64,000 bases of DNA from an uncultured archaeon (GTDB lineage Archaea > Thermoplasmatota > Penumbrarchaeia > JASLWR01): NCBI GenBank assembly GCA_964342815.1, contig CAYFHS010000001.1:115849-179848 (forward strand), read 5' to 3'. This document shows positions 23,670 to 59,824 of this stretch, piece after piece; the stretch's first letter is position 1, and the number at the start of each line of letters is the position of its first letter. The notes beneath the pieces were generated by a model. The model had not been told where the DNA came from and searched no databases. It saw only the letters and a list, made by a program, of their open reading frames with translations. Both the position numbers and the translations under genes were made by a program.

Positions 23670-26600
23670 TCACGGAGATTCGATAGCCCCCTGCGTCTGA
23701 CAGACCGGACAGGTAACCAGAGCCGGGAACTGTTCGATCACGGCGGTATAGTTATTGCCGCATGAATGGCACTGCATGATAATCTCGTTCGAGATGGGAA
23801 CCGGACTTTCTTCCGGACCCGGAGGTACTGCAGGAGGCTCAGGTTCAGGCGGATTGGACATGTTACCCAGCGTGGAAAGATATGCATCGAGTTCCGACAG
23901 ATCACCCGCCTGCGGCTGCTCTACCGGAGGGGCAATGGATTCCGGCGGAGGACCACCCAACGGAGAAATGGGTATCTCGGTCCTAGGATGGCCCGCTGGA
24001 GAAATGGGTATCTCGGTCGTAGGAGGACCGGGGGACATAGCTTCATATTCCGGAGGGGGTGCTAGATTACCATTGACGGAGGAAACTTGCGGTGGCAGTG
24101 AGGAGATTTCCATTACGCCCAAATCCGGCATAATGGTGGGTTGGGCGGGTGAAGTATTGGGACTAACTGGATAAGGTTCTCCTATTCCCCCTGTTTCGGG
24201 TCCCTGGATGTCCGTGGGTCCGGGTGGAAGTGCCATCCTGTTAAGTTCCTGCACTCCATGTTCGGTATTGAATGAAGGGAGGGTGTAGCTAGTTTCGCCC
24301 GTAATACCCGTGGCTGCTCCCGATTGATGGTACGGGGGGAGCTGGGGCTGTTGGGGTTGATTGGGCGGCGCTGGGGTAAATTGTTGCGTATTGGATGACC
24401 CTGGCCCTGGTGGGAGCATCAATAATTGGGATTGCTGTCCCGGCATCCCCACAGCAGGTCGTTGGGGCTGGTAGGCGGCATTGTATCCTTGCTGACCGGC
24501 AAACACGTGCTGACCCATGGGATAAGGATGCATTGGAGTACCGTAGGGTGATTGTTTGAAGGGGGGATGTGCTTGTGGTGGAATTTTCTTTTCGCCGTTC
24601 TTCTTTTTTCTCACGATGATAAGTATGATCAGGACCGCAATGATGAGGGCGAGTATCACGCCCAGGATGAGGAATAGCAGGGAAGAACTTTCACCCAGTA
24701 TCCCGGCGCTTTCAGTGTTCACTATGTCTGGCTCGCCTTCCGGTGAATCCATGGCGTTATTCGGATCTGTACCCTGTTCCCGTTCGAATCCGTCGGAGAA
24801 ACCATCCCCGTCGCTGTCGGTCTTGTATTCGGTACTGCTGCCCACCGCAACCTTTACCTTCTCGCTCTCATTGTAGCCGTGACCGTCAGACGCGAATACC
24901 GTAATGGTGTGTTTTCCCGGAGCCAGCCTTGCATTCATAACTGCACCTGATCCCAGGGATCGGTTGGCGCTGACGTTGGATGTCCAGTAATAGCTAAGAT
25001 TATCCCCGTCCTCGTCGGCGGAGTCGGATGCGTCGAAAATAATCACGCTGTCGAACCTGAAATACGATCCCTCATTGGGAGCTGATATTATCGCCTCAGG
25101 CTTTGAATTCACCCATACCCTGTACGGGACCGACATGTTGTGACCGGTGCCCATAAGATCGTCAGCGCGCCATCGGATGTAATTGTCCGAACCCCACTCG
25201 AACTCCAGTTCCATAAGAACCTGGGTGGGATTTCCCTCTATGACGTTTACTGCATTCTTCCAGGGCCCAAAACTCTTATTGTCGCCTTCTCCGTTTGCAA
25301 TGGAATATTCGACCATTGTCGGATCGACCCCGATCCCGTCGTCAAATATCTGTATGAAGCATTCAACTTTTCTATTGTCCGCGTATTCGTCCTCTCGCGG
25401 TGTGAACGAACCGAAATAAACAGGGGAAGTGTCTATCTTTAGGTTGAATTTATCGGATAATGCCGGGGGATTGCCTACCACATCCCTTCCTCTGAATATG
25501 ATGTAATTGTCCTTTCCCTCAGCATAACGAAAGGTAACGGTTATCTCATAGCCGTCATCAGCAAATTTGATAATATTATCGGCATCAATTGACGTCCACC
25601 GGCCGAAATCACCCGGGCCCGAGGTGGATATCCTGGCTTCGAGACTCCCGGGATCCACTCCGCTGCCGGCATCCGTAACGGTTATTTTAGTCGTTATTTC
25701 TTCCTGGTCATACCATTGCAGCTGAGGCGTTATCACATCAGCGAAGTTGACGGGAGTAGTATCGATCTTTATGTTGACGGAGGGTGATTCCACGAATCCG
25801 TTTCCCGGAATATCCTTTGCACGCCATTTTATGTAATTATCCTCACCCTCCTGGAATATATATTTTATTTCAGGTACCATTGGTTCATTATTCTCGGGTA
25901 TCCATGCAGGTATCCAGAAATCGAAACCGTGCACGTCGCTGTCGGAAACGGAGTATTCTATTGTGCTGCCGTCAACTCCCGCCCCTTCACCGTCGTAGAC
26001 CTCTACGGAGCATTCTACGTCCGTATGATTGTGCCATGAACCGTCCAAGGGAGCATGATTCGAAAAGGTAGGGGGCGTCAAGTCCACTAGTATACCCGAG
26101 CTGGCGGCTTCTCCAACATTTCCCACCATGTCAATGCACCAAACGTAGATCTCCGCATACCCCTCGTCAAGTTTTTCCATCATGACTTCAGTGATATTGG
26201 TAAATGTTCCATTCGAGGTTCCCGAGTTATCAATCTGGGAATAATAATAGCCCAACAAACCCGAAGCGGGATCCTCCACTTCATCCCAGGTAACGTACAT
26301 CTCGGCCAGCTTCGTATTCTCCGTCTCCTTGTCCTTGAAACCTCCGGCCCGGCACTGCAGGTTAACGGGATACAGAGGAACTTCGGCATCGATCATTACC
26401 TCGAAGGTGAGGTTTGTCATGCATATGCCCGTACCGGGTATGTTTTCGATGGTAATGAGATATTCTTCTTCCTGGTCCGTAAGATTTCTGGAGCTGAATT
26501 TTATCCCGACACTTTCCCCCCTGCTCTCGTTGTCCCACCATGTATTTCCCGCTGTGTCCGATAGCTTGACATCGAAATAATCGTCATGTGGGAATATATT

Positions 26601-27983
26601 CTTAGTATTAGCATAACACACTGTGATATTGGTCAGGTTTATACTTTCATCACCACGTATCCAGTCACTCTCACTCAATAATCCCTGGTATTCACCGGTA
26701 AAATCAGGAGTCCCGATAAAGTCCAGATCGTTCTCGATACGAAACAGCCACGGAAACCTGTCTACGGAATATTCACCCGATTTTGCCGTTGTGTAAACCA
26801 GGGCGTCCATGAACCTCTCATGGGGAAAGGTGAAATTGAAAATAAGAATGAAATTTAGGTACCATCTGTCAACCCCGTTATTCGTGATAAAACAGTCGTT
26901 AAGCACTAACTGCACGGTCCCTCCCTCATCCTGCTGTTTGAAGAACCGGCCCTGACTCCAATTGTAACACAACGTGGCGTTGGTTGTATTGTAATCCAGG
27001 TGAACCTTCACATTTGATACCTCATCGAGAGAGTCCATTGTGCTTATGTTCACGGTGAGGTTGTACGGCTTGTACTGGGCGTAACAAATATTGTCGTCTC
27101 CGGTGGGATTGGCCAGCACAACGTCCTCTGCACTGGGTATGGACGTCAAACCCTGCATTGCCTCCAGTATCTCCTGCTCGGAAAGATACCTTGAAAAGAT
27201 GGCGGCCTCATCGATCAACACGTCTGCTGAACTGCTCGCCGAGATTGGTTTTCCACCCACACAGGGGTCCGTGGGACAGTGGGATCCCTGAGCTCGGCGC
27301 GGAGATGTGGGTACGTTCTTTGAACCGGTAACCTTCAGAACACCGTCAACATATATCTGGAGGTTGTTCATATTACAGCGGATAGCCACATGATGCCACT
27401 GGCTGTTGCAGAGGTTCAGACCGTTTGCGTATGTGTTATAATTCGAGTTGTCATTATCGCTGCCGCCCCAGAATCGAATCTGCGACGAACTGGCAAGATT
27501 CATGGTGTAGCCGTTTCTGTTTGTGCAGCAGTCACCGAACATCATCAAGCCTTTCTGGTTTCCAGATCGGACCTTGAACCAGCACATGAAAGTATAGGCG
27601 TTTGGCATGTCGAGGTTGGATAGAGGTCCACCCACCTGAACCCTATTCTGATCTCCCCCGGGTACCCGCATCGACCACCTTCCGTGTTTAGCGTCATTGG
27701 AAAACGAAACCCCGTGAAGCGTTCCGTCGTTCCCCCCCGTGATGGACAGGTCCTTTACCAGATTTCCCCCACCTTCCTCGAAGTCGTAGTACAGAGCCTC
27801 CGGCTGCAGTCCTCTGCGTCTATTAACCGAGGCTTCGGGAGCCTCAATATTCCCTATTTTAACGTCAAGATTCCCGTGTTCCACGAGGGTATAATTGGAA
27901 ATGAAACCCGTATATGATGAAACAATTAATAACAGTACGAGAAAAAGAATACCTGGCATTTTATTATTGCAAATAGGATCCAT
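23670..27983 (-). CDS. Array paralog P1: surface protein with LamG/concanavalin-like head
   Basis: Head LYYDFEEGGG...YTFMCWFK...QWHHVAI...IYVDGVL...IDEAAIFSRYLSEQEI; shared stalk from CYAQY (Cys 27086); TM; Pro-rich tail; CHSC..CPVC. Confidence 0.9.
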   Translation of the reverse strand: MDPICNNKMPGILFLVLLLIVSSYTGFISNYTLVEHGNLDVKIGNIEAPEASVNRRRGLQPEALYYDFEEGGGNLVKDLSITGGNDGTLHGVSFSNDAKHGRWSMRVPGGDQNRVQVGGPLSNLDMPNAYTFMCWFKVRSGNQKGLMMFGDCCTNRNGYTMNLASSSQIRFWGGSDNDNSNYNTYANGLNLCNSQWHHVAIRCNMNNLQIYVDGVLKVTGSKNVPTSPRRAQGSHCPTDPCVGGKPISASSSADVLIDEAAIFSRYLSEQEILEAMQGLTSIPSAEDVVLANPTGDDNICYAQYKPYNLTVNISTMDSLDEVSNVKVHLDYNTTNATLCYNWSQGRFFKQQDEGGTVQLVLNDCFITNNGVDRWYLNFILIFNFTFPHERFMDALVYTTAKSGEYSVDRFPWLFRIENDLDFIGTPDFTGEYQGLLSESDWIRGDESINLTNITVCYANTKNIFPHDDYFDVKLSDTAGNTWWDNESRGESVGIKFSSRNLTDQEEEYLITIENIPGTGICMTNLTFEVMIDAEVPLYPVNLQCRAGGFKDKETENTKLAEMYVTWDEVEDPASGLLGYYYSQIDNSGTSNGTFTNITEVMMEKLDEGYAEIYVWCIDMVGNVGEAASSGILVDLTPPTFSNHAPLDGSWHNHTDVECSVEVYDGEGAGVDGSTIEYSVSDSDVHGFDFWIPAWIPENNEPMVPEIKYIFQEGEDNYIKWRAKDIPGNGFVESPSVNIKIDTTPVNFADVITPQLQWYDQEEITTKITVTDAGSGVDPGSLEARISTSGPGDFGRWTSIDADNIIKFADDGYEITVTFRYAEGKDNYIIFRGRDVVGNPPALSDKFNLKIDTSPVYFGSFTPREDEYADNRKVECFIQIFDDGIGVDPTMVEYSIANGEGDNKSFGPWKNAVNVIEGNPTQVLMELEFEWGSDNYIRWRADDLMGTGHNMSVPYRVWVNSKPEAIISAPNEGSYFRFDSVIIFDASDSADEDGDNLSYYWTSNVSANRSLGSGAVMNARLAPGKHTITVFASDGHGYNESEKVKVAVGSSTEYKTDSDGDGFSDGFEREQGTDPNNAMDSPEGEPDIVNTESAGILGESSSLLFLILGVILALIIAVLIILIIVRKKKNGEKKIPPQAHPPFKQSPYGTPMHPYPMGQHVFAGQQGYNAAYQPQRPAVGMPGQQSQLLMLPPGPGSSNTQQFTPAPPNQPQQPQLPPYHQSGAATGITGETSYTLPSFNTEHGVQELNRMALPPGPTDIQGPETGGIGEPYPVSPNTSPAQPTIMPDLGVMEISSLPPQVSSVNGNLAPPPEYEAMSPGPPTTEIPISPAGHPRTEIPISPLGGPPPESIAPPVEQPQAGDLSELDAYLSTLGNMSNPPEPEPPAVPPGPEESPVPISNEIIMQCHSCGNNYTAVIEQFPALVTCPVCQTQGAIESP

Positions 27984-28160
27984 TCCATCATTCCTGTTTC
28001 TTAATTATGTTACTTACATTGAGTGAAACTTGGGGCATTATGCAACCGATCAGTTTTCTAAATCATAGCACCAATTCATTAATAACTATTTTTATAAAAA
28101 TTACGGGTTTGTGCGACTTTACCATGGAATAGCGCAAGCATCCTTTCTATCGGATTTTGC

Positions 28161-31100
28161 TTAAATTGAATTAATTACCCCTTGAGTCGTGCAGACCGGG
28201 CAGGTGACCAGAGCCGGAAGCTGCACTATCTCAGCTGTATAATTATTACCGCATGAATGGCACTGCATCGTTATTTCATTAGTCACCCGAGTCGGATTTT
28301 CTTCGAGAACCGCTTGCCCTGAGGGTGGCGGCGCCGAAGGTTCATCATGGCTCTCATCCAGTGAAAAAAGATAAGCATCGAGTTGCGATAGATCACCTGG
28401 TACCGAGGGATCCACGGGGATTGGTCCAGCCACTGCTAACGTGGGGACGTCCATTGGGGCCGGTGCATCGGGCGGAACCTGCAGCAGTTCTTCCGATGAC
28501 GGCAACGGTTGTGATGGCCCGAGAAATGATTTTTCCATAGCAGCAATGTCGGGTAGGAATGCGGGTGGGAACGGCATATCGGGAGCAGGCATCTGGATGG
28601 GAACCCCCGTGTTAATAGTATCTTGTTCCAAGGGAGCAGGTCCCGGAGGAAGAGCCATCAGCTCAAGGTTCTGCAGTCCCTGATCGGTAGGAAATGAAGG
28701 AAGCAAAAAGGCAGCATCAGTCAAAGGATCGGTTGCGGGACCGAGCTGGCCGTAATTGGTCTGTGGAGCTATCTGAACAGGATCGAACTGCGCCATTCCA
28801 TGTGCCGGAGGAAGCGCTGTTGGGGCGGCCTGACCTCCCGGCATACCTCCGTAAGTTGGCGGCGTGCTCCCATACCCCTGCTGTCCCGGTGACATGTACT
28901 GTCCTTGAGGATAGAAATGCTGGTTCGGTCCAAAATCCGATTGCTGTAAAGTTGGTTGGATCGTTGGCGGAATCTCTTTTTCACTCTTTTTCTTCCTTTT
29001 TATTACAATAAATAATGCCAGCAAAATAAGTATTATCAGCAAAAAGATACCAAAAAGAATCAAGAACAACCAGGATGAGCCTTCACCCAATAATCCGCCG
29101 CTTTCCTGATCAATGATATCCGGCTCCCCAGGTGGAGTCAAGGCCCTATTCAGCGGATCTGTTCCTTTTTCGCGCTCCAGACCGTCCGAGTACCCGTCGC
29201 CGTCGCTGTCAGTTTCATAATCGAGCTTTCTCAGCACCTCGAGCTTTACTTTTTTGCTCTCGTTGTAACCGTGCCCATCTGACACGAACAACGTGATAGT
29301 GTGTTTTCCGGGGACCAGGCTTGCACTCATGAAAACCTTCGAGCCGATGGACTTGTTTGCGCTTACGTTACTGGACCAGTAATAGCTGAGATTGTCTCCA
29401 TCCTCATCGCTTGATTCCGAGGCATCGAAGAATATTTGCCGCCCATACCTGAAAAACGATCCCTGTTCAGGAGCGGAAATCTCTGCCGTCGGCTTGGAAT
29501 TTACCCACACCCTGAACGGTTTGGATTCGTTGAAACCAGTACCCATAATATCATCGGCCCGCCACCGGATGTAATTATCGGATCCCCATTGGAACTCCAC
29601 TTCCATAAGTACCTGAGTGGGGGTTCCTGACACCACGTTTTCCGTTTTCTTCCATGGCCCAAATTTCTTTTCGTCGCCCCCCACCCCTTTCGCCACAGAA
29701 TATTCAACCGTTTTAGGATCCACCCCGCTGCCGTCATCGAATATCTGGATGAAACATTCCACGATAGTGCTGTCCGCGTAATCTTCCTTATCCGGAGTAA
29801 AGGTCCCGAAATATACCGGGGACGTATCGATCTTCAGATTGAACTTATCAGAAATGGTGGGTGGATTTCCAACCTCATCAGTACCCCGGAACATGATGAA
29901 GTTATCCTTTCCTTCGGAATAATTGAAAGTCACGCTAACTTCATATTTTTCTAGTCCCGATCCGGTTATATTTTCAGGATCAACACGAATCCAAGGGCAA
30001 AAATCATTTGGACCAGTCCTTGATATCCTTACTTCCAGGCTTGTGGGATCCACCCCGCTTCCACCGTCACTTACGCTTATGGAAGTACTTACGGTATTAT
30101 GATCGTACCATTCCGTTTGCGGCGTAATAACCGGCTCAAAGATAACCGGTGTAACATCTATTTTTATATTTATCGGAGAAGATTCCACAAAACCGTTTTC
30201 GGTAATATCTTTGGCACGCCATTTTATGTAATTTTCTTCACCCTCCGGAAAGATGTATTTTATGTGTGGAGTAATAAGCCTTTTTTCCTCAGGCACCCAT
30301 GCAGGTATCCAGAAATTGAAGCCATTCTCTCCATTTGCGGAGACCGAATATTCAATTGTGGTGCCGTCCACCCCGGCTCCCTCGCCATCATATATTTCAA
30401 CCGAGCAATCAATATCAGTATGATCGTGCCATGAACCGTCCATGGGAGTATGATTCGAAAAGACCGGCGGGGTAAGGTCCACCAGAATTCCCGATTTGGC
30501 GCCATCTCCAATGTTGCCCACCTTATCGATGCACCACACGTAAATTTCCGCGCCCCCCTCGTCCAGTTTATCGATCTTGACTTCCGTGACGTTGATAAAG
30601 GTACCGTTTATGGTTCCCGAATTGTCCGTTTTGGAGTAATAATAACCCAGGAGACCCGAGGCGGGGTCCTCCACGGCATCCCAGGTAACGTACATTTCAG
30701 CCTGGTTGGTATTCCCGGTCTCCTTGTCCTTGAAGCCTCCTGCGCGGCAAAGAAGGTTATCGGGATACAGGGGAGCTTCCGCATCGATCTTGACGGGGAA
30801 GGTCAGATTCGTCATGCAGATACCCGAGCCGGGAATGTTCTCGATGGTGATGAGATATTCTTCGTCCGGGTCCGTAACGTTTCTCGAACTTAGATCGATC
30901 ACTATATTTTCTCCCTTGCTCTCATTGTCCCACCAGGTATTTCCCACGCTGTCCATTGTACGCACGTCGAAAAAAACATCTTCAGGATAAATATTCGCCG
31001 AACCCGCGTATCTCACCTTCAGATCCGATACCCTAATATCCTCATTTCCTCTTATCCAATCCCCTTCTGTCAGTTCTCCCTGGAATTCCCCCGTGAAACC

Positions 31101-32339: not shown

Positions 32340-32447
32340 TTCCTTCCATCTCCAAGTAAAGTCAGGAACGTTTTGACTGACTTGTTGGTAAAGACGAGCT
32401 TGCATGGGTCGGCTTTACACAAGGACCTTAAAACAACGTACAACCTG

Positions 32448-32465
32448 TATTTATAGCTTATCCGA
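32448..32465 (-). promoter_or_regulatory. Candidate BRE-TATA upstream of P2
   Basis: Minus strand TCGGATAAGCTATAAATA. Confidence 0.5.
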
Positions 32466-36737: not shown

Positions 36738-36794
36738 CGAAGCACTCCACAAAAAATGAAGGAATGTTGTCTGTAAAAAACAACGTGCTAACAC

Positions 36795-41168: not shown

Positions 41169-41477
41169 ACATTCACCGTGATCAGCTCAGTGGGCGGTAA
41201 TATTACCGATGACGGAATTGGATTTAACATTTGGAGATTACTCAGCGGGAAGCAAAAACATAGAGCCTTCCGGTATATATAATATTGGAATGAAATGGAT
41301 GACAAAAAAAAGTTTGTCTGAGGACCGGATGGGAGAATTTAGAAAAAGGTTAAGTAGCAAATTATAGGATTGGAGATAATCCGATTAGAAATTAACAAAA
41401 AATATTTATTATTTATTTAAGGCCCTTCAACCCAAATCAATATAACATATGATACCTATATGTTACTCTGTGATATA

Positions 41478-41777
41478 ATGTCTACGCAAGTTAACATCAG
41501 ATTGGACGACAATTTATTAAGTGAAATAGACGCGATTACAAAGGTTCTTCATGTTTCCCGAACTGAATGGTTAAGGATGAAAATTGCTTTTGCAGTAAAA
41601 GATGATACTTTAAGATTTTCTGAAGCAATTGCAATGGAATATGCAAAAGGACACCTTAGTGATATGGAATTAAGAGAAATGCTGGGTTCCGATGCCGATG
41701 AGGTAATATACATCGTAAAACATATGAAAAGAGGCAAGAATTATATCGAAGATATGGTGGACAAGGGACTTTTATGA
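41478..41777 (+). CDS. Ribbon-helix-helix antitoxin-like protein (VapB/UPF0175-like)
   Basis: TQVNIRLDDNLLSEIDAITKVLHVSRTEWLR fits the RHH pattern; ATGA overlap with the downstream PIN gene; the track starts at 41460. Confidence 0.8.
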   Translation: MSTQVNIRLDDNLLSEIDAITKVLHVSRTEWLRMKIAFAVKDDTLRFSEAIAMEYAKGHLSDMELREMLGSDADEVIYIVKHMKRGKNYIEDMVDKGLL

Positions 41778-42241
41778 AACCGTCGCTTGCTTTCGATACT
41801 TCGGCCCTTGTTTCTCTGGGCCATACGGAATTGATAGAATTGATCTTGGATAACTATAATGTCATCATTTCCGATAGGATATTAAAAGAATTGGCTGAGA
41901 TCGGAGGAAAGAACGACAAAGATGCTAAAGCGGCCAATAAATGGTTGGAATACTCCGACAAGATGGAATTGAAAGATGCAAAGAAAAGCATAATTGGTGA
42001 GGAAGAACTATTGGAAATAGCTCAACGCGAAAAATTATCAATGGTGACCGATGACGTAAAAGCAACTAAAAAATTCGAGGATCAAATAGATTGGATATTT
42101 AGTGTCCATGTAGTTTTCCTTCTCTATTATAAAGGTATAATTACAAAAGAAAGAGCAATTTTTTCCATAGAAAAGATGATAAGTGAGAGATCTTGGAAGA
42201 ATAATATTATCTCCTTGACGGCAAAGTTACTTTTTCAATAA
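41774..42241 (+). CDS. PIN-domain ribonuclease (VapC-like, DUF3368-like)
   Basis: AFDTSALV, ILKEL, GEEELLEIA, VTDD acidic tetrad; translationally coupled to the RHH gene. Confidence 0.85.
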   Translation: MKPSLAFDTSALVSLGHTELIELILDNYNVIISDRILKELAEIGGKNDKDAKAANKWLEYSDKMELKDAKKSIIGEEELLEIAQREKLSMVTDDVKATKKFEDQIDWIFSVHVVFLLYYKGIITKERAIFSIEKMISERSWKNNIISLTAKLLFQ

Positions 42242-50987: not shown

Positions 50988-51086
50988 ATTACACACTCAT
51001 TTTTAGGGTATATTCATTAATATCTAAATGTAAAAACGCAAAAGCAATAATATTTACACTATTTATTATTAGTTATCTTAAATAAA

Positions 51087-54000
51087 TTACATAGATTCGA
51101 TCATTCCCTGAGTCTGACAGACCGGGCAGGTGACCAGAGCTGGAAGCTGCACTATCTCGGCTGTATAATTGTTACTGCAAGAGTGACACTGTATCTGCTG
51201 GAATCCACTTCGATTACCGCCACTGTTTGGTGGCGGAAGAGAAGGGGAAGCAGATTCCTGCGTTTCCGAAGATGAAGCCAACAGACCCGTCTGTTGGCGA
51301 TTCATGGTTATCTCATTTGCAGCCTGGGCCGGAGTTTCCATCGGAACGGGAGGCTCCCGGATATCGGATTCCTCTTTTAAACTACCTATTGTGGCGAGAT
51401 AAGCGTCAAGTTCCCCGAGATCACCTGTATTGGCATTCGTAGGATCAATAATGGATGATGGACCTGTGGCTGCTGGGGCCGGAGGTGAAATTAGCTGTTG
51501 GCCGAAAGGAAACTGCTGTTCATCTACACTGGGCGATATGGTTTCAGGTTGTATCGGATTGATATTTGTTTGCGCTTCAGCGTGTATGGGTCCGGGAGGT
51601 AATGCCATCCTGTTGAGATTCTGCGAGCCTTGCTCGGTGGAGAACTGTGGAAGTGAGTAAGTGGTGCTGCCTGCGGCACCCGTACCAAGCTGACCGTATG
51701 GGATCTGCGGTTGTAATTGTAATGTGGGAGTTTGTCCGGGGGCAGCCGTCCCGAATTGCTGGGAGGCCCCCATCCCCGATCCCGAATTCATCATCATGGT
51801 AGGGGTATTCAGTCCTTGCATAGCCATGACCGCCGCTTGGTATTGCGCCATTTCTCCATAGCCCTGCTGCCCGGCTTCAGACATGTATTGACCCTGACCA
51901 TAGGGATGCTGGGATGGGCCGTATTGTGATTGTAGCGGGGGAGACTGGACGCTGGGTTCTTCGTCTTTTTTTCTTTTTCTCACTACAAAGAATATAACCA
52001 AAATCAGGATGATCAACAGTAATAATCCCCCAAGAACTACAAAAAGCAGTGAAGAACCTTCACTCAATATTCCCAATTTCTCCTGGACGACAATATCCGG
52101 CTCACCTTCCGGGGAAACCGCCCCGTTATGCGGGTCGGTACCTTTTTCGCGCTCCAACCCGTCCGAGAATCCGTCCCCGTCGCTGTCCCGCTCATAAGCT
52201 GCTTTAGAACCCACTTCGATTTTAACCTTCGCGCTCTCATTGTAACCATTCCCGTCTGACACGAATACAGTTATTGTATGTTTTCCAGGGGCCAGCACGG
52301 CATATTTAACACTGCCGACCCCCAGGAGCTGGTTGGCGCTGACATTGGATGTCCAGTAATAGGTGAGATTGTCTCCATCCTCGTCGGATGAATCGGAAGC
52401 ATCGAATGTAATTTCGCCGTCATAGCGGTAATACGACCCAGCTTCGGGAGATGAAATTTCTGCATCCGGCTTCGAATTCACCCATACCCTGTAAGGCAGT
52501 GACACATTGTACCCCGTTCCCATGACATCGTTGGCACGCCAACGTATGAAATTATCGGACCCCCATTCGAACTCCAACTCCATTAGAACCTGCGTGGGAT
52601 TCCCCTCTACAACGTTAACTGCCTTCTTCCACGGCCCAAAACTTTCATTGCCGCCGCCCCCTTTGGCGACAGAATATTCGACGGTTTGGGGATCTACCCC
52701 CGATCCGTCGTCCAGTATCTGTATGAAGCATTCCACGGACTTTCTGTCCGCAAAATCATTCTCGTCCGGTGTGAAATCGCCGAAATACACCGGGGAAGTA
52801 TCGATTTTCAGATTGAATTTGTCTGACGAGGTAAAGGGATTTCCCACCATGTCCGTGCCTCTGAACATGATGTAATTATCCTTCCCTTCCGGGTAAGTGA
52901 AAGTGACGGCTATTTCATAACCGTCGTCACCGAATTTAGTTATATTTTCCCGGTCAATTTGCATCCATGTGCTGAAATCATTTGGGCCCGACGTGGATAT
53001 CCTTGTTTCGAAGCTTTGCGGATCCAAGCCGCTTCCGGTATCGCTAACCGTTATCTTTGTTGTTATTGAATGGTGATCATACCAATCCTTCGGGGGTGAT
53101 ATCGCATCGGCAAAAATGACGGGAATCGTGTCGATCTTTATGTTTATGGAAGGCGATTCCGCAAAGCCGTTCCCCGAAACGTCCTTTACCCTCCATTTTA
53201 TGTAATTTTCTTCACTCTCCTCAAAGATGTATTTTACGCTGGCCACCGTCGGTTCGTTCTCTAGAGGCACCCATGCAGGTAGCCAGAAATCAAAACCGTG
53301 TACTCCATCATTGGACACGGAGTATTCTATTGTAGTGACGTCGACTCCCGAACCAGTGCCGTCATATATTTCCACCATGCATTCTATGTCCGTGTGATTG
53401 CGCCATGAACCGTCCAGGGGAGTATGGTTCGAAAAGACCGGCAGCGTAAGGTCCACCAGTATGCCCGAATTTCCTGCCTCTCCAATGTTTCCCACATTAT
53501 CGATGCTCCAAACGTAAATTTCCGCAAATCCTTCACCCAGCTCATCGATCTTTACTTCTGTTTCATTGGTGAAAGTCCCATTTGTGGTTCCCGAATTGTC
53601 CAAATGAGAATAATAATAACCCAATAGACCCGAAGCCGGGTCCTCCACTTCGTCCCAAGTGACGTACATCTCGGCCTGGTTGGTATTCTCCGTCTCTTTG
53701 TCCTTGAAACCCCCGGCCCGACACTTCAGATTAACGGGAAACAGGGGTGCTTCTGCATCGATCTTTACCGGGAAGCTTAGATTTGTCATGCAAATACCGG
53801 AACCGGGGATGTTCTCGATGGTTATGAGATATTCCTCAGCCGGGTCGGTGACCTTTTGCGTATTAATGGAAATTGAAATCCCTTCCACGCTGGATGAATT
53901 GTCCCACCACGTTTTTCCGGTCCTGTCCATGATCCTGACATTGAAGAATTCATCATCCGGGTACCGCATTGGAGACCCTGCATATATCACTGTAATATTG

Positions 54001-55418
54001 CTGACGGTGATTGCCTGATTTCCCTTTACCCATGATCCGGATTCGATTTTACCCTGTTCGTCCCCGAAAAAGAATGGTGTGCCTTTAAACTCGAAATCGT
54101 TCTCGACACGACAAATATGAGGGAATCTCTTCATCCGTGATTTGCCGTTGCTGGCTCTTATCTTGACAAAACAGTCAATCTTCTTCTCATGTGGAAAAGT
54201 AAAATTAAATCTGATGGAGAAATTTACAAACCATTTATCATCACCGTTATTTGAAAAAGCACTGTCTTTGACCAGAAGCTGCACATAGCCGTTTTCGTCC
54301 CCCAATTTGAAGAATTTCCTTTGCGTCCAGTTGAATCCCAGGGTGGCATTTGTTGTATTATAATCGAGCCATACCTCCATTTCAGAGGCATCGTCAAGGG
54401 TTTTGGTGGTGGTGATATTCACGCTGAGATTATATGAGCTGTACTCTGCATAACATACTTTTCCGTCGTCTATATCACCTTTCAATGCCGCAGATTCCAC
54501 GTTCGTGATCCTTACCCCCCCAATTTCGGGATAATGATAAACGTTTCCCTGATTCCAGACGAGAAGACTGTTGTCCTCTGCATTGTAAGAGGTATGGGCG
54601 ATGTATCCTCCGGCACCGAGACTGTTTGAGTACGAGCTACGGGAGGAAGTGCTGGTATCGTATTTGTAATTGAAGGTTGCGCTGTTGTATGAATTTCCCC
54701 AGTACAATACACCGCCGACCATGAATGCCCAGCCCACGTTTCCCTTGTTCCTGCCAGTATTCCAGGTTTTTAAAACGTTCAGATTTTCATCCAGTTGGCT
54801 CAATTGCATGGGTTGTGAGGTCGATGTCGCCCAGCAGACGTAGAGACCGGTCTCGTCACTCATAAGATTGATATCAGTGTAGCCGCCCCAATTGAAATGG
54901 GCCCGGTTGTGAAATCCCGCGTTTGGCAGTGCCCTCGATAGTACTTGAGCCATGTCCGTTGTCCTGCATTTTACCAGTGTGTTGCTGTTGTACTGCGCAT
55001 AGTAGAGATGGTTGTTGTAAATTGTGTGATAGGTTCCTTCGGATTGCCGTGGGAGATTAAATTGTCGAACACCGTTATTATTGATGAAGTTGGCCAGCGA
55101 AGTGTATCGATATACCGTTGACTCCCGATAGCTGTTATGATAGAACACATGTCCGTTCGATTCGTCCACATCTATAAAACCATAAGTGCTGAAACCACCC
55201 CTGATCTGCCCGAAATTATTTGATAATTGTCTCATCTCTTCATCGCTGCGTGTTTTTTTCACGCTGTTTTCCGCGGTCATTTCTCTTCTGACATTTATGG
55301 AAGTTTTCAGGGAGGGCTCCTCAATTGCGTCTGTAAGGTAGCTTTGGAAAGCCGTACTTATCATCACAACAAATATTGGGATGATTATTATCTTAGTCAA
55401 TTTCCGATTCTTTTTCAT
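51087..55418 (-). CDS. Array paralog P7: surface protein with olfactomedin-like head
   Basis: LPNAGFHNRAHFNWGGYTDINLMSDETGLYVCWAT...LSQLDENLNVLKTWNT...AFMVGGVLY...YKYDT...SYNAEDNSLLVWNQG matches olfactomedin motifs in order; stalk from CYAEY (Cys 54455); carries the 108-bp insert. Confidence 0.9.
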   Translation of the reverse strand: MKKNRKLTKIIIIPIFVVMISTAFQSYLTDAIEEPSLKTSINVRREMTAENSVKKTRSDEEMRQLSNNFGQIRGGFSTYGFIDVDESNGHVFYHNSYRESTVYRYTSLANFINNNGVRQFNLPRQSEGTYHTIYNNHLYYAQYNSNTLVKCRTTDMAQVLSRALPNAGFHNRAHFNWGGYTDINLMSDETGLYVCWATSTSQPMQLSQLDENLNVLKTWNTGRNKGNVGWAFMVGGVLYWGNSYNSATFNYKYDTSTSSRSSYSNSLGAGGYIAHTSYNAEDNSLLVWNQGNVYHYPEIGGVRITNVESAALKGDIDDGKVCYAEYSSYNLSVNITTTKTLDDASEMEVWLDYNTTNATLGFNWTQRKFFKLGDENGYVQLLVKDSAFSNNGDDKWFVNFSIRFNFTFPHEKKIDCFVKIRASNGKSRMKRFPHICRVENDFEFKGTPFFFGDEQGKIESGSWVKGNQAITVSNITVIYAGSPMRYPDDEFFNVRIMDRTGKTWWDNSSSVEGISISINTQKVTDPAEEYLITIENIPGSGICMTNLSFPVKIDAEAPLFPVNLKCRAGGFKDKETENTNQAEMYVTWDEVEDPASGLLGYYYSHLDNSGTTNGTFTNETEVKIDELGEGFAEIYVWSIDNVGNIGEAGNSGILVDLTLPVFSNHTPLDGSWRNHTDIECMVEIYDGTGSGVDVTTIEYSVSNDGVHGFDFWLPAWVPLENEPTVASVKYIFEESEENYIKWRVKDVSGNGFAESPSINIKIDTIPVIFADAISPPKDWYDHHSITTKITVSDTGSGLDPQSFETRISTSGPNDFSTWMQIDRENITKFGDDGYEIAVTFTYPEGKDNYIMFRGTDMVGNPFTSSDKFNLKIDTSPVYFGDFTPDENDFADRKSVECFIQILDDGSGVDPQTVEYSVAKGGGGNESFGPWKKAVNVVEGNPTQVLMELEFEWGSDNFIRWRANDVMGTGYNVSLPYRVWVNSKPDAEISSPEAGSYYRYDGEITFDASDSSDEDGDNLTYYWTSNVSANQLLGVGSVKYAVLAPGKHTITVFVSDGNGYNESAKVKIEVGSKAAYERDSDGDGFSDGLEREKGTDPHNGAVSPEGEPDIVVQEKLGILSEGSSLLFVVLGGLLLLIILILVIFFVVRKRKKDEEPSVQSPPLQSQYGPSQHPYGQGQYMSEAGQQGYGEMAQYQAAVMAMQGLNTPTMMMNSGSGMGASQQFGTAAPGQTPTLQLQPQIPYGQLGTGAAGSTTYSLPQFSTEQGSQNLNRMALPPGPIHAEAQTNINPIQPETISPSVDEQQFPFGQQLISPPAPAATGPSSIIDPTNANTGDLGELDAYLATIGSLKEESDIREPPVPMETPAQAANEITMNRQQTGLLASSSETQESASPSLPPPNSGGNRSGFQQIQCHSCSNNYTAEIVQLPALVTCPVCQTQGMIESM
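51195..51302. repeat. 108-bp in-frame palindromic insert, copy in P7
   Basis: Identical by eye to 55619-55726. Confidence 0.85.
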
Positions 55419-55487
55419 ATTTTAACTCCTCGGTTCCGGAAGAGAAATACTTGTCGAGATGATGGGGTGAAAACAATGAAATTCCAC

Positions 55488-55504
55488 TATTAATAGTTAT
55501 CCGG
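55488..55504 (-). promoter_or_regulatory. Candidate BRE-TATA upstream of P7
   Basis: Minus strand CCGGATAACTATTAATA. Confidence 0.45.
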
Positions 55505-55510
55505 AATATC

Positions 55511-58500
55511 TCATATGGATTCGATCATTCCCTGGGTTTGGCAGACCGGGCAGGTTACCAGAGCTGGAAGCTGCACTATCTCGGCTGTATAATTGTTTCC
55601 GCAAGAGTGACACTGCATCTGCTGGAATCCACTTCGATTACCGCCACTGTTTGGTGGCGGAAGAGAAGGGGAAGCAGATTCCTGCGTTTCCGAAGATGAA
55701 GCCAACAGACCCGTCTGTTGGCGATTCATGGTTATCTCGCTTGCTGCTTGGGCCGGTGTCTCCATGGGAACGGGAGGTTTGGGGGGCTCTGAGCCCGGTG
55801 ATTCAGTCATACCGCCCAATGCGGCCAAGTATGCATCCAGTTCTGCCAGGTCGCCGATATTATCTGAGGAGGGCCCGGTTGTCTCCATAGCAGGAGATGC
55901 TGCTGTTTCAGCCACCGTATCTGGCGGCGGAGACGGTAACGGTTCAGCTGGAAATGTCGAATCCACTCTCGTTGAAGATATTGGATCTGGCGGCGTTGGT
56001 AAAGGCGTTCCCGGCGATCCTGCATCCGGCAGGATGGGGGGTTGCAGAGGCATGTCAGGAACAGAAGGTGGATAAGCAATCCCCAAATCCGCTGCAACGG
56101 GTGCTGGAGGTGAGGCGGGGCCTGGAGGAAGCGCCATTCTTTGGAGATCCTGCAGTCCCTGATCGGTTTGGAAGGAAGGAAGTAAATAGCCAGGATCCGC
56201 TGGGATACCCGGGCCAATCCCCGGAGGACCCTGCTGGGATGGAAATGCTTGAAATGCGGGACCACCAGGAACAACGTGGGGCCCGGGAGGCAGCATCAAT
56301 TGCGGCGATTGTATCCCCTGCATTCCAAATCCCGCTCGATGGCCAGGGTCGGGACCTGAATATCCCTGCGAGACAGGAGTCTGGTACTGTCCCTGCTGGT
56401 AAGGGTGAGGACTAGGTCCTGGGTACGTCTGCTGCGTGGGACCCGGAGCGGAGGGGGCGGGTACCTTCTTTTCGGATTTTTTCTTTTTCCTTAAAATGAT
56501 GAAAATGATCAGTATCACTAACACGAGAAGGAAGATACAGGCTAGGATTATGAAAAGTAACGAAGATCCACCGCTCAGTATCCCGCCGGGTTCCGTGATC
56601 ACTATGTCGGGTTCGCCTTCCGGGATTACGGCGCCGTTGTGTGGATCGGTTCCGGACTCCCGTTCCAGACCATCCGAGAAACCATCCTCGTCGCTATCCT
56701 TTTCGTATTCGACCCGGCTGATCACCTCGATTTTTACTTTCTCACTCTCGTTGTATCCGTGGCCATCAGAAACGAATAAACTGATTGTATGTTTTCCCGG
56801 GGCTAATCGAACAATGAACTTGGCATCACGTCCGACAGAGCGGTTCAAACTGACATTGCTAGACCAGTAAAAGCTGAGGTTGTCCCCATCCTCGTCGGAG
56901 GACCCCGAAGCATCAAAGGCAATTTCGTCATCGTAACTGAAATATGACCCTTGAGCTGGTGATGTAATAATCGCTTCAGGTTTTGAATTCACCCATACCC
57001 GATAAGGGATCGATATGTTGTGTCCGGTCCCCATCATATCGTCGGCCCGCCAGCGGATGAAATTGGCGGCCCCCCAGTCGAATTCCAGCTCCATAAGAAC
57101 CTGTGTGGGATTGCCTTCTACCACATTTACTCCCTTGTTCCAGGGCCCAAAATTTTCATTGTCACCCCCGTTCGCAATTGAATATTCCACTGAAGAAGGG
57201 TTCACCCCAGAGCCGTCATCGAATATCTGAATGAAACATTCCACCATCTTGTCGTCCGCATAATCGTTCTCTAAAGGCGTGAAAATCCCGAAATATACTG
57301 GCGAGGTGTCGATTTTCAGATTGAATTTATCAGATAATGTTATGGGGTTGCCAACCAGGTCCGTTCCCCTGAACATGATGAAGTTATCCTTTCCCTCCGC
57401 ATACCTGAATGTGACTGTAAGTTCGTGGCTGCCGCCATCGTTTTCACTGATGTTTTCGGCGTCTATTGACATCCACCGGCCGAAATCATTAGGGCCGGAA
57501 ACAGAAATTCTTGTTTCGATGCTGTCCGGCTTCACTCCACTTCCGATATCGCTAACCAATATCGTTGTTGAAATTTCTGCATAATCATACCATTCCATCT
57601 GAGGCGATATCTCCGCTGCGAAATTGATGGGAGTTGTATCAACCTTCAGGTTAACAGATGACGATTCGACAAATCCATTTCCTGTTATATCCTTTGAACG
57701 CCATTTTATATAATTATCTTCGCCCTCATGAAATATATATTTTGTACTTGGCACCATGGGTTCATTATTCTCGGGTATCCACGCAGGTATCCAGTAATCG
57801 AAACCATGCACTCCGTTATCCGACACTGCATACTCGATGGAGCTGCCGTCGACTCCCGATCCCGCCCCATCAAAGATCTCGATGGAGCAATCTATGTCCG
57901 TCTGATTGTGCCATGAACCATCCATGGGGGTATGGTTCGAAAAAACTGGCGGTGAAAGGTCCACAAGTATGCCGGAGCTTGCGGATTCGCCGATATTCCC
58001 GACCATGTCAATGCACCATACGTAGATCGAGGCAAATCCTTCGTGAAGGTTCTTCAATTCCACCTCGGTGACATTCAGAAAGGTACCGTTGATACTTCCC
58101 GAATTATCTGCTTGTGAATAATAATATCCCTTGAGTCCGGATGCGGGATCCTCTACGGCATCCCAGGTTACGAACATACCGGGCTGATTCGTATGCTCGG
58201 TCTCCTTATCCTTGAAATCATCGGCATGACACTTTAGGTTGACGGGATAGAGAGGAGGGTCCGCATCAATTCGTACGGGGAAGGTCAGATTTGTCATGCA
58301 AATGCCGGTTCCGGGTATATTCTCGATGGTGATATAATATTCTTCTTCCAGGTCGCTAACGTTTCTCGAAGTCAGATTTATTTCGACGCTCTCGTTACTG
58401 CTTTCATTGTCCCACCAAGCTTGCCCCGTTTTATCGGTAATCTTGACATCGAAATAGTCGTCCTTGGGGTAGATATCAACGGCTCCCGCATATCGTACCA

Positions 58501-59824
58501 TAAGATTCGCGACGTTAATATTCTCATTACCCCGGATCCAGTCGTTTTTCTCCAATGCTCCCTGAAATTCACCGGTTAGATCTGGAATACCCACCAGCTC
58601 CATGTCATTCTCAACCTTGAACAGATTGGGGAAGCGGTCGGTTCTTACAATTCCCGTGATAGCAGCGGTGCTAATGAAACAGTCCACCTGGTCTTCGTGG
58701 GGAAAGGTGAAATTGAAAATTACGGAGAAATTGAGCCACCACCTTTCGACACTGTCGGTGGTAACAGTGGAATCGTCAACAAGAAATTGAACGTGTCCGT
58801 CAGTGTCCTGATATTTGTAGAAACGTTTCTGCGTCCAGTTATAGCAAAGAGTAGCATTTGTAGTGTTATAATCAAGGAAAACCTTTACCTCGGAGACCTC
58901 GGTTAGTTCCTTCGCGGATGTGATATTAACACTGAGAGTGTACGGGCGGTGCCGGGCATAGCATATCTTGTTCTCGTCACCATGTCCTAAAATGGCGGCG
59001 TTATCGGCATATGCCGTAAGATCCACTTCCAGCCAACATGCCACAGGCATCCCACCCTGGTTTTGGCCCACAGTGAGAAGAATATCGGAGCCCTGCGGAA
59101 TGGTAGTTATCTCTCCGTGGGACGCGGAACTGCCTGAGAACGAGGGACGGTTCATGTTTCTCACCATGGGGTGATTGACCGCCACCACGAAATTATGGCT
59201 GTTACCATTTCCATTGGTCCTTACACCGAAAGGGCCGGGAACGCCCCTGGACCAACGGCGTTGATAATTCGTACCGAACATGTCGATCAGTATTCCCCCG
59301 TTATTCACATAGTCCTCCATGGTTGAAACCATGGACTCCATCTTGTTCATATGCTGGTTCGGCTGGTATTCGGATATTATGATCATACGAAAAACATTCG
59401 GGTCAAAATCATTCACATTGACCGCACCGGCACTTTTCTGTGTAAATTGTATCCCCCTGGTGTTCATCTCCCGGCGCCAGCCGTCAGACCAACCCTGATG
59501 ATCCCATATTATGAGTATGGGCCCCGAATCCGCATGGGTTGGCCAGAGCCAATCGAATGTATTCATGATGAAGAAACGGGAATGTTGGCCGTTCCCGTAA
59601 CCGTAACTTGCTATGGTCCCAGTGACAAAATAAATTCCCTTATCACCGGCGCTCCTTTTATTTGATGTTATGGCCAATTGCCTCGAAGGGTTCTTTGGCT
59701 TCACCTCTATTTCCTGGTTTTCTTGGAGGGCCATGTAGGAGCACAAGGACAAATATCCGGTTCCCATGATACAGAAAACAACAGCAATCGACACCACCAC
59801 GGGCATTATATTCGATCTTCCCAT
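55511..59824 (-). CDS. Array paralog P8: surface protein with GATase/ThuA-like head (apparently circularly permuted)
   Basis: Head FRMIIISE...MEDYVNNGGILIDM...NHPMVRN; stalk from CYARH (Cys 58963); GGAGA RBS; carries the 108-bp insert. Confidence 0.88.
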   Translation of the reverse strand: MGRSNIMPVVVSIAVVFCIMGTGYLSLCSYMALQENQEIEVKPKNPSRQLAITSNKRSAGDKGIYFVTGTIASYGYGNGQHSRFFIMNTFDWLWPTHADSGPILIIWDHQGWSDGWRREMNTRGIQFTQKSAGAVNVNDFDPNVFRMIIISEYQPNQHMNKMESMVSTMEDYVNNGGILIDMFGTNYQRRWSRGVPGPFGVRTNGNGNSHNFVVAVNHPMVRNMNRPSFSGSSASHGEITTIPQGSDILLTVGQNQGGMPVACWLEVDLTAYADNAAILGHGDENKICYARHRPYTLSVNITSAKELTEVSEVKVFLDYNTTNATLCYNWTQKRFYKYQDTDGHVQFLVDDSTVTTDSVERWWLNFSVIFNFTFPHEDQVDCFISTAAITGIVRTDRFPNLFKVENDMELVGIPDLTGEFQGALEKNDWIRGNENINVANLMVRYAGAVDIYPKDDYFDVKITDKTGQAWWDNESSNESVEINLTSRNVSDLEEEYYITIENIPGTGICMTNLTFPVRIDADPPLYPVNLKCHADDFKDKETEHTNQPGMFVTWDAVEDPASGLKGYYYSQADNSGSINGTFLNVTEVELKNLHEGFASIYVWCIDMVGNIGESASSGILVDLSPPVFSNHTPMDGSWHNQTDIDCSIEIFDGAGSGVDGSSIEYAVSDNGVHGFDYWIPAWIPENNEPMVPSTKYIFHEGEDNYIKWRSKDITGNGFVESSSVNLKVDTTPINFAAEISPQMEWYDYAEISTTILVSDIGSGVKPDSIETRISVSGPNDFGRWMSIDAENISENDGGSHELTVTFRYAEGKDNFIMFRGTDLVGNPITLSDKFNLKIDTSPVYFGIFTPLENDYADDKMVECFIQIFDDGSGVNPSSVEYSIANGGDNENFGPWNKGVNVVEGNPTQVLMELEFDWGAANFIRWRADDMMGTGHNISIPYRVWVNSKPEAIITSPAQGSYFSYDDEIAFDASGSSDEDGDNLSFYWSSNVSLNRSVGRDAKFIVRLAPGKHTISLFVSDGHGYNESEKVKIEVISRVEYEKDSDEDGFSDGLERESGTDPHNGAVIPEGEPDIVITEPGGILSGGSSLLFIILACIFLLVLVILIIFIILRKKKKSEKKVPAPSAPGPTQQTYPGPSPHPYQQGQYQTPVSQGYSGPDPGHRAGFGMQGIQSPQLMLPPGPHVVPGGPAFQAFPSQQGPPGIGPGIPADPGYLLPSFQTDQGLQDLQRMALPPGPASPPAPVAADLGIAYPPSVPDMPLQPPILPDAGSPGTPLPTPPDPISSTRVDSTFPAEPLPSPPPDTVAETAASPAMETTGPSSDNIGDLAELDAYLAALGGMTESPGSEPPKPPVPMETPAQAASEITMNRQQTGLLASSSETQESASPSLPPPNSGGNRSGFQQMQCHSCGNNYTAEIVQLPALVTCPVCQTQGMIESI
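55619..55726. repeat. 108-bp in-frame palindromic insert, copy in P8
   Basis: Flanked by ATG codons at 55616-55618 and 55727-55729. Confidence 0.85.

Follow-up and report, generated by a model that had tools for sequence, protein, structure and literature searches.

How did eight neighbouring genes come to encode proteins that begin with unrelated domains and continue into one common stalk, and what might such proteins do? The question is raised by the window analysed here, a stretch of 64,000 nucleotides from an uncultured archaeon of the phylum Thermoplasmatota (GenBank assembly GCA_964342815.1, contig CAYFHS010000001.1, positions 115,849 to 179,848). The source assembly comprises 4.35 Mb in 116 contigs and is 89% complete. 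Eight co-oriented minus-strand open reading frames (ORFs), numbered g1 to g8 and each of 1354-1466 amino acids (aa), span window positions 23670-59824. They encode paralogous type-I membrane glycoproteins in tandem. The ORFs and their translations thus bear out the eight paralogues described in an earlier, sequence-only reading of this DNA. Each protein consists of a signal peptide, a head of ~240 aa, a stalk, a TSP3 repeat, one membrane helix, a disordered proline- and glutamine-rich tail and a four-cysteine (C4) zinc ribbon. The heads have been inherited vertically under strong purifying selection. Conversely, the stalks and tail ends have been homogenised between array neighbours by gene conversion.

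Windowed pairwise identity was calculated on a MAFFT alignment of the eight proteins. It is 5-13% over the first ~290-320 residues, which are the heads, and 42-80% from an invariant Cys-Tyr onward, for ~830 residues through the membrane helix. Identity in the cytoplasmic tail is 12-37%, one motif excepted (53%). In the last 35 residues it is back to 82% among the eight copies. The Cys codons at the junction lie at 27086, 31481, 35879, 40313, 45819, 50132, 54455 and 58963, exactly where the sequence-only reading had placed them. That reading also described an abrupt onset of similarity. Identity does jump at the Cys-Tyr, but a weak shared strand is present already ~15 codons before the Cys. The stalk and tail features that it listed (three D-x-G-x-GV-(D/N) repeats, PKD, a DSDGDG repeat, the membrane helix and a CHSC-x16-CPVC ribbon) occur in all eight copies, the PKD weakly. 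It further held that similarity lapses between membrane helix and ribbon; tail identity is indeed low, but two further conserved motifs lie in the tail.

Five heads can be assigned, with different degrees of certainty: one LamG, one olfactomedin, one beta-propeller and, less surely, two GATase1-like. Gene g1 (P0001, 1437 aa; 23670-27983) carries a Laminin_G_3/concanavalin A-like lectin (LamG) head at aa 1-299 (27087-27983; PF13385, 71.4 bits against a cut-off of 27.6, E = 1.2e-19, profile positions 4-150 of 151). Its stalk (aa 300-1055; 24819-27086) is followed by the TSP3 repeat (24753-24818), membrane helix (24612-24674), tail motif 1 (24222-24281), tail motif 2 (23877-23903) and zinc ribbon (23700-23771). 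The head of g7 (P0007, 1443 aa; 51087-55418) lies at 54456-55418 and is an olfactomedin (OLF) domain (PF02191, 140.5 bits against a cut-off of 23.9, E = 9.3e-41, profile positions 26-243 of 246); the profile of its head class finds noelin, myocilin and latrophilin-3 in the PDB at 2e-31 to 1e-25. The g7 stalk is at 52188-54455, the membrane helix at 51981-52043 and the ribbon at 51117-51188. For g6 (P0006, 1354 aa; 46932-50996) the profile of the head class (head 50133-50996) matches solved beta-propellers in the PDB (1.5e-14). This gene has its stalk at 47865-50132, its membrane helix at 47658-47720, its ribbon at 46962-47033 and the shortest tail of the array.

The heads of g2 and g3 form one distant class, with 30% identity between the two. 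A search with its profile finds the GATase1-like structure 2gk3 at 9.4e-5, and the g3 head alone gives sub-threshold matches to ThuA (0.008) and GATase1_like (0.02). In g2 (P0002, 1414 aa; 28161-32405) the head is at 31482-32405, the stalk at 29211-31481, TSP3 at 29145-29210, the membrane helix at 29001-29063 and the ribbon at 28191-28262. In g3 (P0003, 1433 aa; 32493-36794) the second GATase1/ThuA-like head is at 35880-36794, the stalk at 33609-35879, the membrane helix at 33402-33464 and the ribbon at 32523-32594.

For the heads of g4, g5 and g8 there was no family match in Pfam or NCBIfam, and profiles of their classes matched nothing in the PDB. These three were also used for ESM Atlas feature searches, which gave scores of 0.85-0.93. 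The g4 head (40314-41168 in P0004, 1427 aa; 36885-41168) gave weak language-model leads toward the propeller clan only; the g4 stalk is at 38046-40313, the membrane helix at 37839-37901 and the ribbon at 36912-36983. The g5 head (45820-46776 in P0005, 1466 aa; 42376-46776) is linked to that of g3 by BLAST (5e-4) and by language-model leads of 0.92-0.93 toward flavodoxin/GATase1-like clusters, which we treat as leads only; the g5 stalk is at 43552-45819, the membrane helix at 43345-43407 and the ribbon at 42406-42477, and the tail has TPP repeats. The g8 head (58964-59824 in P0008, 1437 aa; 55511-59824) gave similar leads below 0.9; the g8 stalk is at 56699-58963, the membrane helix at 56495-56557 and the ribbon at 55541-55612. 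Comparison of the head classes by hhalign found no significant link, the alignments being shallow. No head matched FG-GAP, and no head, stalk or ribbon scored above cut-off in NCBIfam. The sequence-only reading counted at least four unrelated folds, with four GATase/ThuA-like heads and two propellers. LamG, olfactomedin and the g6 propeller stand, the g2/g3 class is probably GATase1-like, and at least four folds is a reasonable figure. The GATase-like assignment of g5 and g8 and the propeller assignment of g4 are no more than weak leads, and the counts of four and two are tentative.

Mis-assembly or repeat collapse, which the sequence-only reading named as a hazard, is very unlikely given the 29-36% nucleotide divergence between copies. 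Stalk copies are 64-71% identical in nucleotide sequence, with exact runs of at most 50 nucleotides (nt), and similar arrays are present in independently assembled relatives. Contigs from four independent marine metagenomes are at least 99% alike; at 300-490 bp they are too short for long-range array structure. A joint between homologous g6 and g8 stalk positions in metagenome contigs was not trusted, its shorter side being 21 letters. Every array gene is preceded by an AT-rich region with a similar CGGATAA...TATAxATA-like element. The positions of these elements likely point to later start codons in g2 (Met23), g3 (Met20) and g6 (Met4).

The histories of head and stalk differ. In a maximum-likelihood tree of 66 stalks, sequences group by lineage and not by head. 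One fully supported clade holds the eight local stalks with their nearest orthologues, and other clades repeat the same head set. Approximately unbiased (AU) tests on the stalk alignment reject monophyly of same-head genes for the olfactomedin (p = 1e-137), g8 (3e-68) and g5 (5e-59) types. The sequence-only reading proposed separate trees for head, stalk and tail; the stalk tree does not follow head type. Clustering of heads gave at least 12 classes with two or more members, and all eight local head types have orthologues in other lineages. Between orthologues the head is mostly better conserved than the stalk: olfactomedin-type heads are 87% identical and their stalks 61%, and the corresponding figures are 72 and 49% (g8 type) and 85 and 57% (g5 type). 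The exceptions are LamG (~51 versus 57%) and far pairs of the propA type. The ratio of nonsynonymous to synonymous change (dN/dS) rises from 0.06-0.10 in the heads through 0.09-0.13 in the stalks to 0.20-0.26 in the tails. That heads are so alike because they recently passed horizontally from one lineage to another is excluded: between distant lineages, synonymous sites (pS) are as saturated in the head as in the stalk. The head-swapping repertoire suggested by the sequence-only reading thus fails: the heads are 1:1 orthologous, and no recent transfer has spread them.

Stalks behave otherwise. Nonsynonymous divergence (dN) between stalks is 0.21-0.26 for paralogues in one genome and 0.31-0.32 for same-head orthologues in another lineage. 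Paralogous stalks are hence closer than orthologous ones; this is impossible under simple divergence and is a signature of concerted evolution. Tracts can also be seen. Over their final ~200 nt, g7 and g8 show 90-100% identity, compared with 40-60% upstream, and at the three residues where a strain variant of g8 departs from it, the variant has the g7 state each time. The array of a relative has two members whose heads are unrelated but which are identical over ~300 consecutive mid-stalk residues, with flanks at 54-72% identity. In three lineages olfactomedin and propeller genes adjoin, and in each of these the stalks of the two form a pair.

The array is dynamic; genes have been gained, lost and reordered. 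Between the same flanks, a congener has five genes (g8-, g5-, g2-, g1- and g7-type) compared with eight here, and its olfactomedin gene sits elsewhere in the order. Olfactomedin and g6-type propeller heads also occur on other stalk types elsewhere in the genome. An array member on contig 10 (C10:66226-70386) has an endostatin/collagen XVIII NC10-like head (PF06482, 3e-18). Over deep time, heads thus also pass from one stalk family to another. The mosaic pattern is better explained by concerted stalk evolution than by head swapping. In sum, the locus reflects modular shuffling on an evolutionary timescale, together with stalk homogenisation, and not a cassette or variation mechanism.

What do the proteins do? 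On balance, and with modest confidence, we favour array members being ligand-capture or adhesion receptors on equal-height stalks, docked to one or more cytoplasmic partners, that form a fixed toolkit and not a variation system. Each head type would bind, or in some cases perhaps process, its own conserved extracellular ligand; glycans, proteins, particles and other cells are candidates. The glycosylated stalk would hold one head away from the membrane. The tail motifs and terminal ribbon may dock the receptors to cytoplasmic partners for anchoring, clustering or positioning. Vertical inheritance keeps the heads, and conversion between neighbours keeps stalks and tail ends alike. The sequences show the anatomy, the distribution, the selection pattern and the concerted evolution; ligand binding and cytoplasmic docking are the steps that we infer. 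The same build, a functional head on a membrane-anchored stalk, is encoded by neighbouring genes for a C25 peptidase and a transglutaminase-like protein.

The tail follows a basic stop-transfer sequence. It is 250-340 aa long, rich in proline, glutamine, glycine and tyrosine, and predicted to be disordered. Motif 1 (LPSFxTDQGxQNLxRMALPPGP in the array) reads Y-x-LP-x-F-x-TDQG-x-QNL-x-RMALPPGP across 56 homologues, with L, P, A, L and P invariant. Motif 2, DLSELDAYL, lies between motif 1 and the ribbon. In the ribbon (CHSC-x16-CP(V)C in the array), four Cys and one Pro are invariant across the 56 homologues and His, Tyr, Val and Gly nearly so. It is modelled as a four-stranded zinc ribbon with a predicted local distance difference test score (pLDDT) of 92-96. 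Foldseek searches with the tail model gave no significant match and only generic small zinc ribbons (Tim15, S27e, ZitP and LysW). Ribbons of the MJ0042/ZitP/GltJ type (TIGR02098; PF13717/PF13719) are expected to score above the family cut-off, have the form CxxC-x19-CxxC and are usually N-terminal. The array ribbons score 15.2-17.7 bits against MJ0042/TIGR02098 (cut-off 20.9). They are also sub-threshold against Zn_ribbon_4 (E = 0.018) and Zn_ribbon_8 (E = 0.001), and below the cut-off of the FmdB model. By score, x16 spacing and C-terminal position, they fall outside this type.

The ribbon is not confined to the array. By pattern scan, ~35 ORFs of the genome end in a CxxC-x16-CxxC ribbon of the same template. 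Some 26 of these are surface proteins with a signal peptide, one membrane helix and a long tail, drawn from several stalk families. The remainder are soluble: a helical-repeat giant of 7277 aa, a DnaK with two ribbons, a TPR protein and small acidic proteins. The DnaK/Hsp70 homologue (C13:99380-101563) is extended by two basic C-terminal zinc ribbons of the x16 class. Giant helical-repeat cytoplasmic proteins with a basic C-terminal ribbon are encoded at C3:33290-55123 (7277 aa) and found in databases (P0141, 7686 aa; P0149; P0147). Receptor ribbons are neutral or acidic, whereas those of soluble proteins are strongly basic (+4 to +9). Outside the receptor family, no ribbons are closer to those of the array than the ribbons of the giants, and the two have the pattern Y.A.I...PA.V.CP.C...G.I.S(I/L) in common. 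The ribbon is thus a genome-wide tag and not an array-specific output. Motif 1 occurs also on stalked proteins that have no ribbon, and some orthologues swap the ribbon for a polyproline end; ribbon and motifs are therefore independent docking modules. A second class of C-terminal tag, CxxC-x14-CxxC with YYPEYxCxWCxxCQDYV, is found on other single-pass surface proteins and some soluble proteins (C2:45889, C6:143643, C12:106230, C37:12676, C61:284 and others).

These tails bear on whether the array signals across the membrane, with ligand binding at different heads relayed to one common cytoplasmic output through the ribbon. We regard this as possible but unlikely. The ribbon is of the same type on all eight proteins and conserved in their homologues, and the tail holds conserved short linear motifs. 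A one-component-like protein encoded in the window, with VIT-vWA, membrane-helix and winged helix-turn-helix parts, makes outside-in coupling by single-pass proteins plausible here, and the cytoplasmic zinc ribbon of GltJ works as a switch (PMC11135422). However, there is no enzymatic or DNA-binding output domain, and one membrane helix followed by ~300 disordered residues is a poor conduit for conformational signals. Roadblock/MglB (PF03259) was not found in the genome, 89% complete, in a search with a working control. There is no GYF domain in the array proteins; the genome search for GYF was also empty, but control genomes gave none either, and it is hence uninformative. All eight proteins carry the ribbon, but the common intracellular output proposed by the sequence-only reading is conjectural: the same class ends about 25 other surface proteins and several soluble ones and is absent from some orthologues.

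Measured between the junction and the DSDGDG (TSP3) repeat, all eight stalks are 755-757 aa long. A pattern scan finds two DxGxGV(D/N) motifs per copy, at ~771 and ~881 and thus ~110 aa apart. A third, of the DGEGAGVD type, was missed by the scan and read from translations; it is at ~664, ~107 aa upstream. TSP3_bac (PF18884) scores 24.4-37.6 bits against a cut-off of 25, and is above it in seven of the eight copies; in g1 its E value is 1.9e-9. PKD and PKD_4 are mostly just under cut-off (17-23 bits), so that a PKD domain is likely but marginal. Pfam gave nothing more for the stalk, and NCBIfam and a PDB sequence search gave no match. Ectodomains carry 19-22 N-x-S/T sequons, compared with 0-3 in tails. 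As the sequence-only reading had suggested, the stalk was modelled with AlphaFold2: its first 350 residues (D1-D3, from 67 homologues) form three beta-sandwich domains with a pLDDT of 92.4. Foldseek with this model finds nectin-1, SiiE, IgLON, NCAM2, contactins, titin and MpIBP, the best matches having E values of 2e-8 to 1e-6. The nearest predicted structures are unnamed Thermoplasmatota proteins. Counting also the three DxGxGVD domains and the PKD-like one, the stalk is a rod of some seven beta-sandwich domains of Ig/FN3/PKD-like type. A beta-sandwich domain of such rods is usually ~4 nm long, and the usual domain size suggests a rod of roughly 25-30 nm.

Could such stalks be the coat itself? 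Equal-height glycosylated stalks might pack into the outer envelope of a wall-less archaeon, with the heads as its outer face and stalk likeness arising from mutual fit. We think this, too, possible but unlikely. Invariant stalk length, conserved sequons and the dozens of related stalked proteins in the genome would suit a coat, as would stalks that are more alike within a lineage than between same-head orthologues; that likeness is, however, already accounted for by the visible conversion tracts. No lattice-forming domain was recognised. Moreover, unrelated head folds that are more constrained than the stalk are unexpected in a purely structural coat.

A further reading concerns the giant ribbon proteins, which are 2000-7700 aa long. 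Receptor ribbons and the basic ribbons of the giants might be knobs that dock at one common place under the membrane. In that case the array would form the outer part, one half, of a transmembrane linkage from ligand-specific adhesion heads to an internal skeleton. This is speculative and, in our view, distinctly unlikely. A complex prediction with receptor ribbon, giant-protein ribbon and zinc gave no support, which counts neither for nor against binding.

The heads could instead be catalytic. Some or all would then be surface-displayed enzymes, for instance GATase1/DJ-1-like hydrolases, with a part in extracellular polymer degradation. A stalked C25 peptidase with Ig-like domains, a membrane helix and a cytoplasmic tail is encoded directly downstream, and a transglutaminase-like surface protein nearby. 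The g5-type head keeps an invariant Cys and His in elbow-like motifs (invariant TGCQG and CHG), and the very low dN/dS of the heads is typical of enzymes. However, LamG, olfactomedin and beta-propeller domains are typically binding modules. A conserved Cys-His-Glu triad is expected in true class I GATases, and in the g2/g3 class no Cys is invariant. None of the heads reached threshold with any catalytic family. That the heads are enzymes is hence doubtful, and we consider it very unlikely.

A variation or decoy system against viruses or grazers, with heads swapped or diversified rapidly as in antigenic or phase variation, is exceedingly improbable and already largely refuted: a tandem paralogue array with unrelated tips, array content that differs between congeners, and a toxin-antitoxin pair and inserts of mobile-element type within the array would suit it, but the heads are the most conserved part (1:1 orthologues with dN/dS of 0.06-0.10), all copies are complete genes, each preceded by an AT-rich promoter-like region of its own, the stalk DNA is too diverged (64-71% identity) for frequent recombination, and no silent cassettes or invertible elements were seen, though no repeat or inverted-repeat search was run.

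Several points also weigh against array members being docked ligand-capture or adhesion receptors whose stalks evolve by conversion. Binding is extrapolated for three of the eight heads, because their fold is unrecognised, and the g5-type head, which keeps an invariant G-C-x-G elbow-like motif, could be an enzyme. Some orthologues have no ribbon and end in polyproline, so the ribbon is dispensable. The ribbon class also ends soluble proteins (DnaK, the TPR protein and the helical giants); its role may be general, in localisation, zinc-dependent folding or turnover, rather than in receptor coupling. The completely identical tract of ~300 aa is known at the protein level, from a short-read metagenome contig. 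Lineage grouping of stalks could partly reflect common composition or co-adaptation and not conversion; cross-lineage pS exceeds 0.8, so composition differs.

How far does the family extend? Elsewhere in the same genome, contig 26 carries a triplet of genes with the full stalk, and contigs 2 and 53 carry single ones. The eight-gene array on contig 10 and several other genes match the stalk only in its membrane-proximal half. A collection of 5.8 billion proteins contains ~70 clusters that align with the stalk over its entire length, at 45-79% identity. Every one of them comes from Thermoplasmatota metagenome-assembled genomes and is unnamed; LamG, olfactomedin, NIDO and further unnamed classes are among the heads. 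More distant stalk relatives have FG-GAP (PF01839, PF13517), PQQ or Kelch propellers. The first stalk domains were found in 41 of 401 genomes of the phylum, in nearly all sampled families of the same class and in two other families; among these 401, close relatives (49-80% identity) are restricted to the same family. Records of relatives read 'Thermoplasmatota archaeon', from oxygen-minimum-zone and other marine samples. The tail profile found only 84 representatives among 1.84 billion. On these searches, the family is confined to one clade of marine Thermoplasmatota archaea. The survey of related genomes that the sequence-only reading proposed thus yielded the 12 or more head classes, and arrays of eight and five genes. 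Its statement that this is not a described archaeal system agrees with our searches: no entry in Pfam, NCBIfam or the PDB describes stalk or tail, and literature searches on archaeal olfactomedin, on archaeal surface proteins with zinc-ribbon tails and on MJ0042 turned up no account of this family.

The array also contains inserts. A strongly structured element of ~108-111 nt (minimum free energy -47 kcal/mol) lies in frame just before the zinc ribbon of g4 (~36987-37097), g7 (~51192-51301) and g8 (55616-55726, 111 nt). With seven more copies elsewhere there are at least 10 in the genome, at 79-100% identity, and the congener carries it in its g2-type paralogue. It looks like a mobile element, similar to miniature inverted-repeat transposable elements (MITEs) or repetitive extragenic palindromes (REPs), that is tolerated as a 36-aa insert. 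A toxin-antitoxin-type pair sits on the opposite (plus) strand in a low-GC gap of 1.2 kb between g4 and g5. It consists of a ribbon-helix-helix gene (41460-41777; RHH_1, 4e-4) and a PIN-like gene (41774-42241; PIN_9, 3.6e-5). The pair is absent from the congener's array; it is an insertion and not a family member.

The region of the window is rich in surface proteins beyond the array. The C25 (gingipain-type) peptidase gene (18964-23529, minus strand; 1521 aa) encodes Ig-like domains, one membrane helix and an acidic cytoplasmic tail ending ...ELEWED, and is syntenic with the array in relatives. Also on the minus strand, 2627-5281 encodes a VIT-vWA ectodomain with a membrane helix and two cytoplasmic winged-helix domains, and 3-2324 a transglutaminase-like protein with four TSP3 repeats. 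On the plus strand, a divergent neighbour begins at 60670 and runs to 63999 and beyond (1958 aa; C1:176518-182394). This large surface protein has a Reelin subrepeat-B domain (6e-15) and an acidic tail with an internal zinc ribbon and a polyproline end (PPPPPPPE), and is syntenic in the congener. It resembles the array stalk only weakly and does not fully belong to the family.

If the function proposed here is right, a clade of uncultured marine archaea would meet the outside through single-pass receptors with exchangeable but individually conserved heads and tagged tails. To our knowledge, no such receptor layout has been studied in archaea. Eight heads, two tail motifs and a ribbon provide a parts list that makes attachment or capture ecology, and surface-cytoplasm coupling, testable. 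The locus is also a case of domain-resolved evolution in one gene family, with heads vertical and stalks in concert. Olfactomedin, LamG, NIDO, endostatin-like and TSP3 domains are otherwise known mainly from animal matrix biology. The conserved olfactomedin, LamG, NIDO and endostatin-like surface modules of this prokaryote bear on the origin of 'animal' adhesion domains. Were the adhesion-to-skeleton linkage true, such domains, with TSP3, would build an integrin/spectrin-like arrangement in a prokaryote.

How do the proteins compare with known systems? Giant bacterial adhesins are secreted by type I systems (T1SS) or anchored in the outer membrane or wall, and have no membrane helix with a conserved cytoplasmic tail. 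SiiE, MpIBP, other RTX adhesins and archaeal adhesin-like proteins share with the array a tandem Ig-like rod, a distal ligand-binding region (putative in the array) and a calcium-binding repeat; domains of SiiE and MpIBP match the D1-D3 model. Unlike these giants, the array has a short stalk, fixed in length and common to eight different heads. The hypervariable Ig-domain module of Thermococcales is built around a hypervariable protein, the genes downstream of which vary as well, and it has been interpreted as a system of conflict or self-recognition (PMC8416519). The two cases have in common large archaeal multi-Ig proteins and locus content that varies between genomes; in contrast, the array heads are strongly conserved and no such downstream module accompanies them.

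Nectins, IgCAMs and contactins have an N-terminal recognition domain, an Ig/FN3 stalk, one membrane helix and a tail with short docking motifs, as the array proteins do; integrin alpha is an analogy of layout. The head families of the array (olfactomedin and LamG), like those that its relatives add (NIDO, endostatin-like and FG-GAP), are most familiar from the matrix and adhesion proteins of animals. Unlike metazoan adhesion receptors, the array proteins show no sequence-level family membership beyond single domains, no heterodimer partner and no recognised talin- or PDZ-type motif, and their tail ends in a ribbon. Integrin alpha has a seven-bladed FG-GAP propeller, thigh and calf domains and an obligate beta partner, whereas the array has no FG-GAP head and no beta-subunit-like gene was seen in the window.

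In Caulobacter crescentus the ZitP ribbon binds PopZ, and in Myxococcus xanthus the ribbon of GltJ recruits MglB and also binds the linker of the same protein (PMC11135422). Like the array proteins, both are single-pass membrane proteins whose cytoplasmic end has a C4 zinc ribbon of ~40 aa on a long flexible linker. One of the solved structures nearest to the ribbon model is the ZitP finger (2nb9), with a root-mean-square deviation of 2.0 over 40 residues and a TM-score of 0.59 by target, a match that is not significant. The array ribbon differs in being C-terminal on a type-I protein, in its x16 spacing and in scoring below the TIGR02098 cut-off. The array ectodomain is a head-on-stalk glycoprotein of ~1100 aa and not DUF3426 or part of the Glt machinery. 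The GltJ focal-adhesion switch combines zinc ribbon and GYF in one tail, with MglA/MglB in the genome; array proteins have no GYF, and Roadblock/MglB was not found. Taken together, the closest known parallels to the logic of the tail are the ZitP and GltJ ribbons. For the ectodomain they are giant Ig-rod adhesins and animal IgCAM-type receptors, the likeness to both being in fold and layout only.

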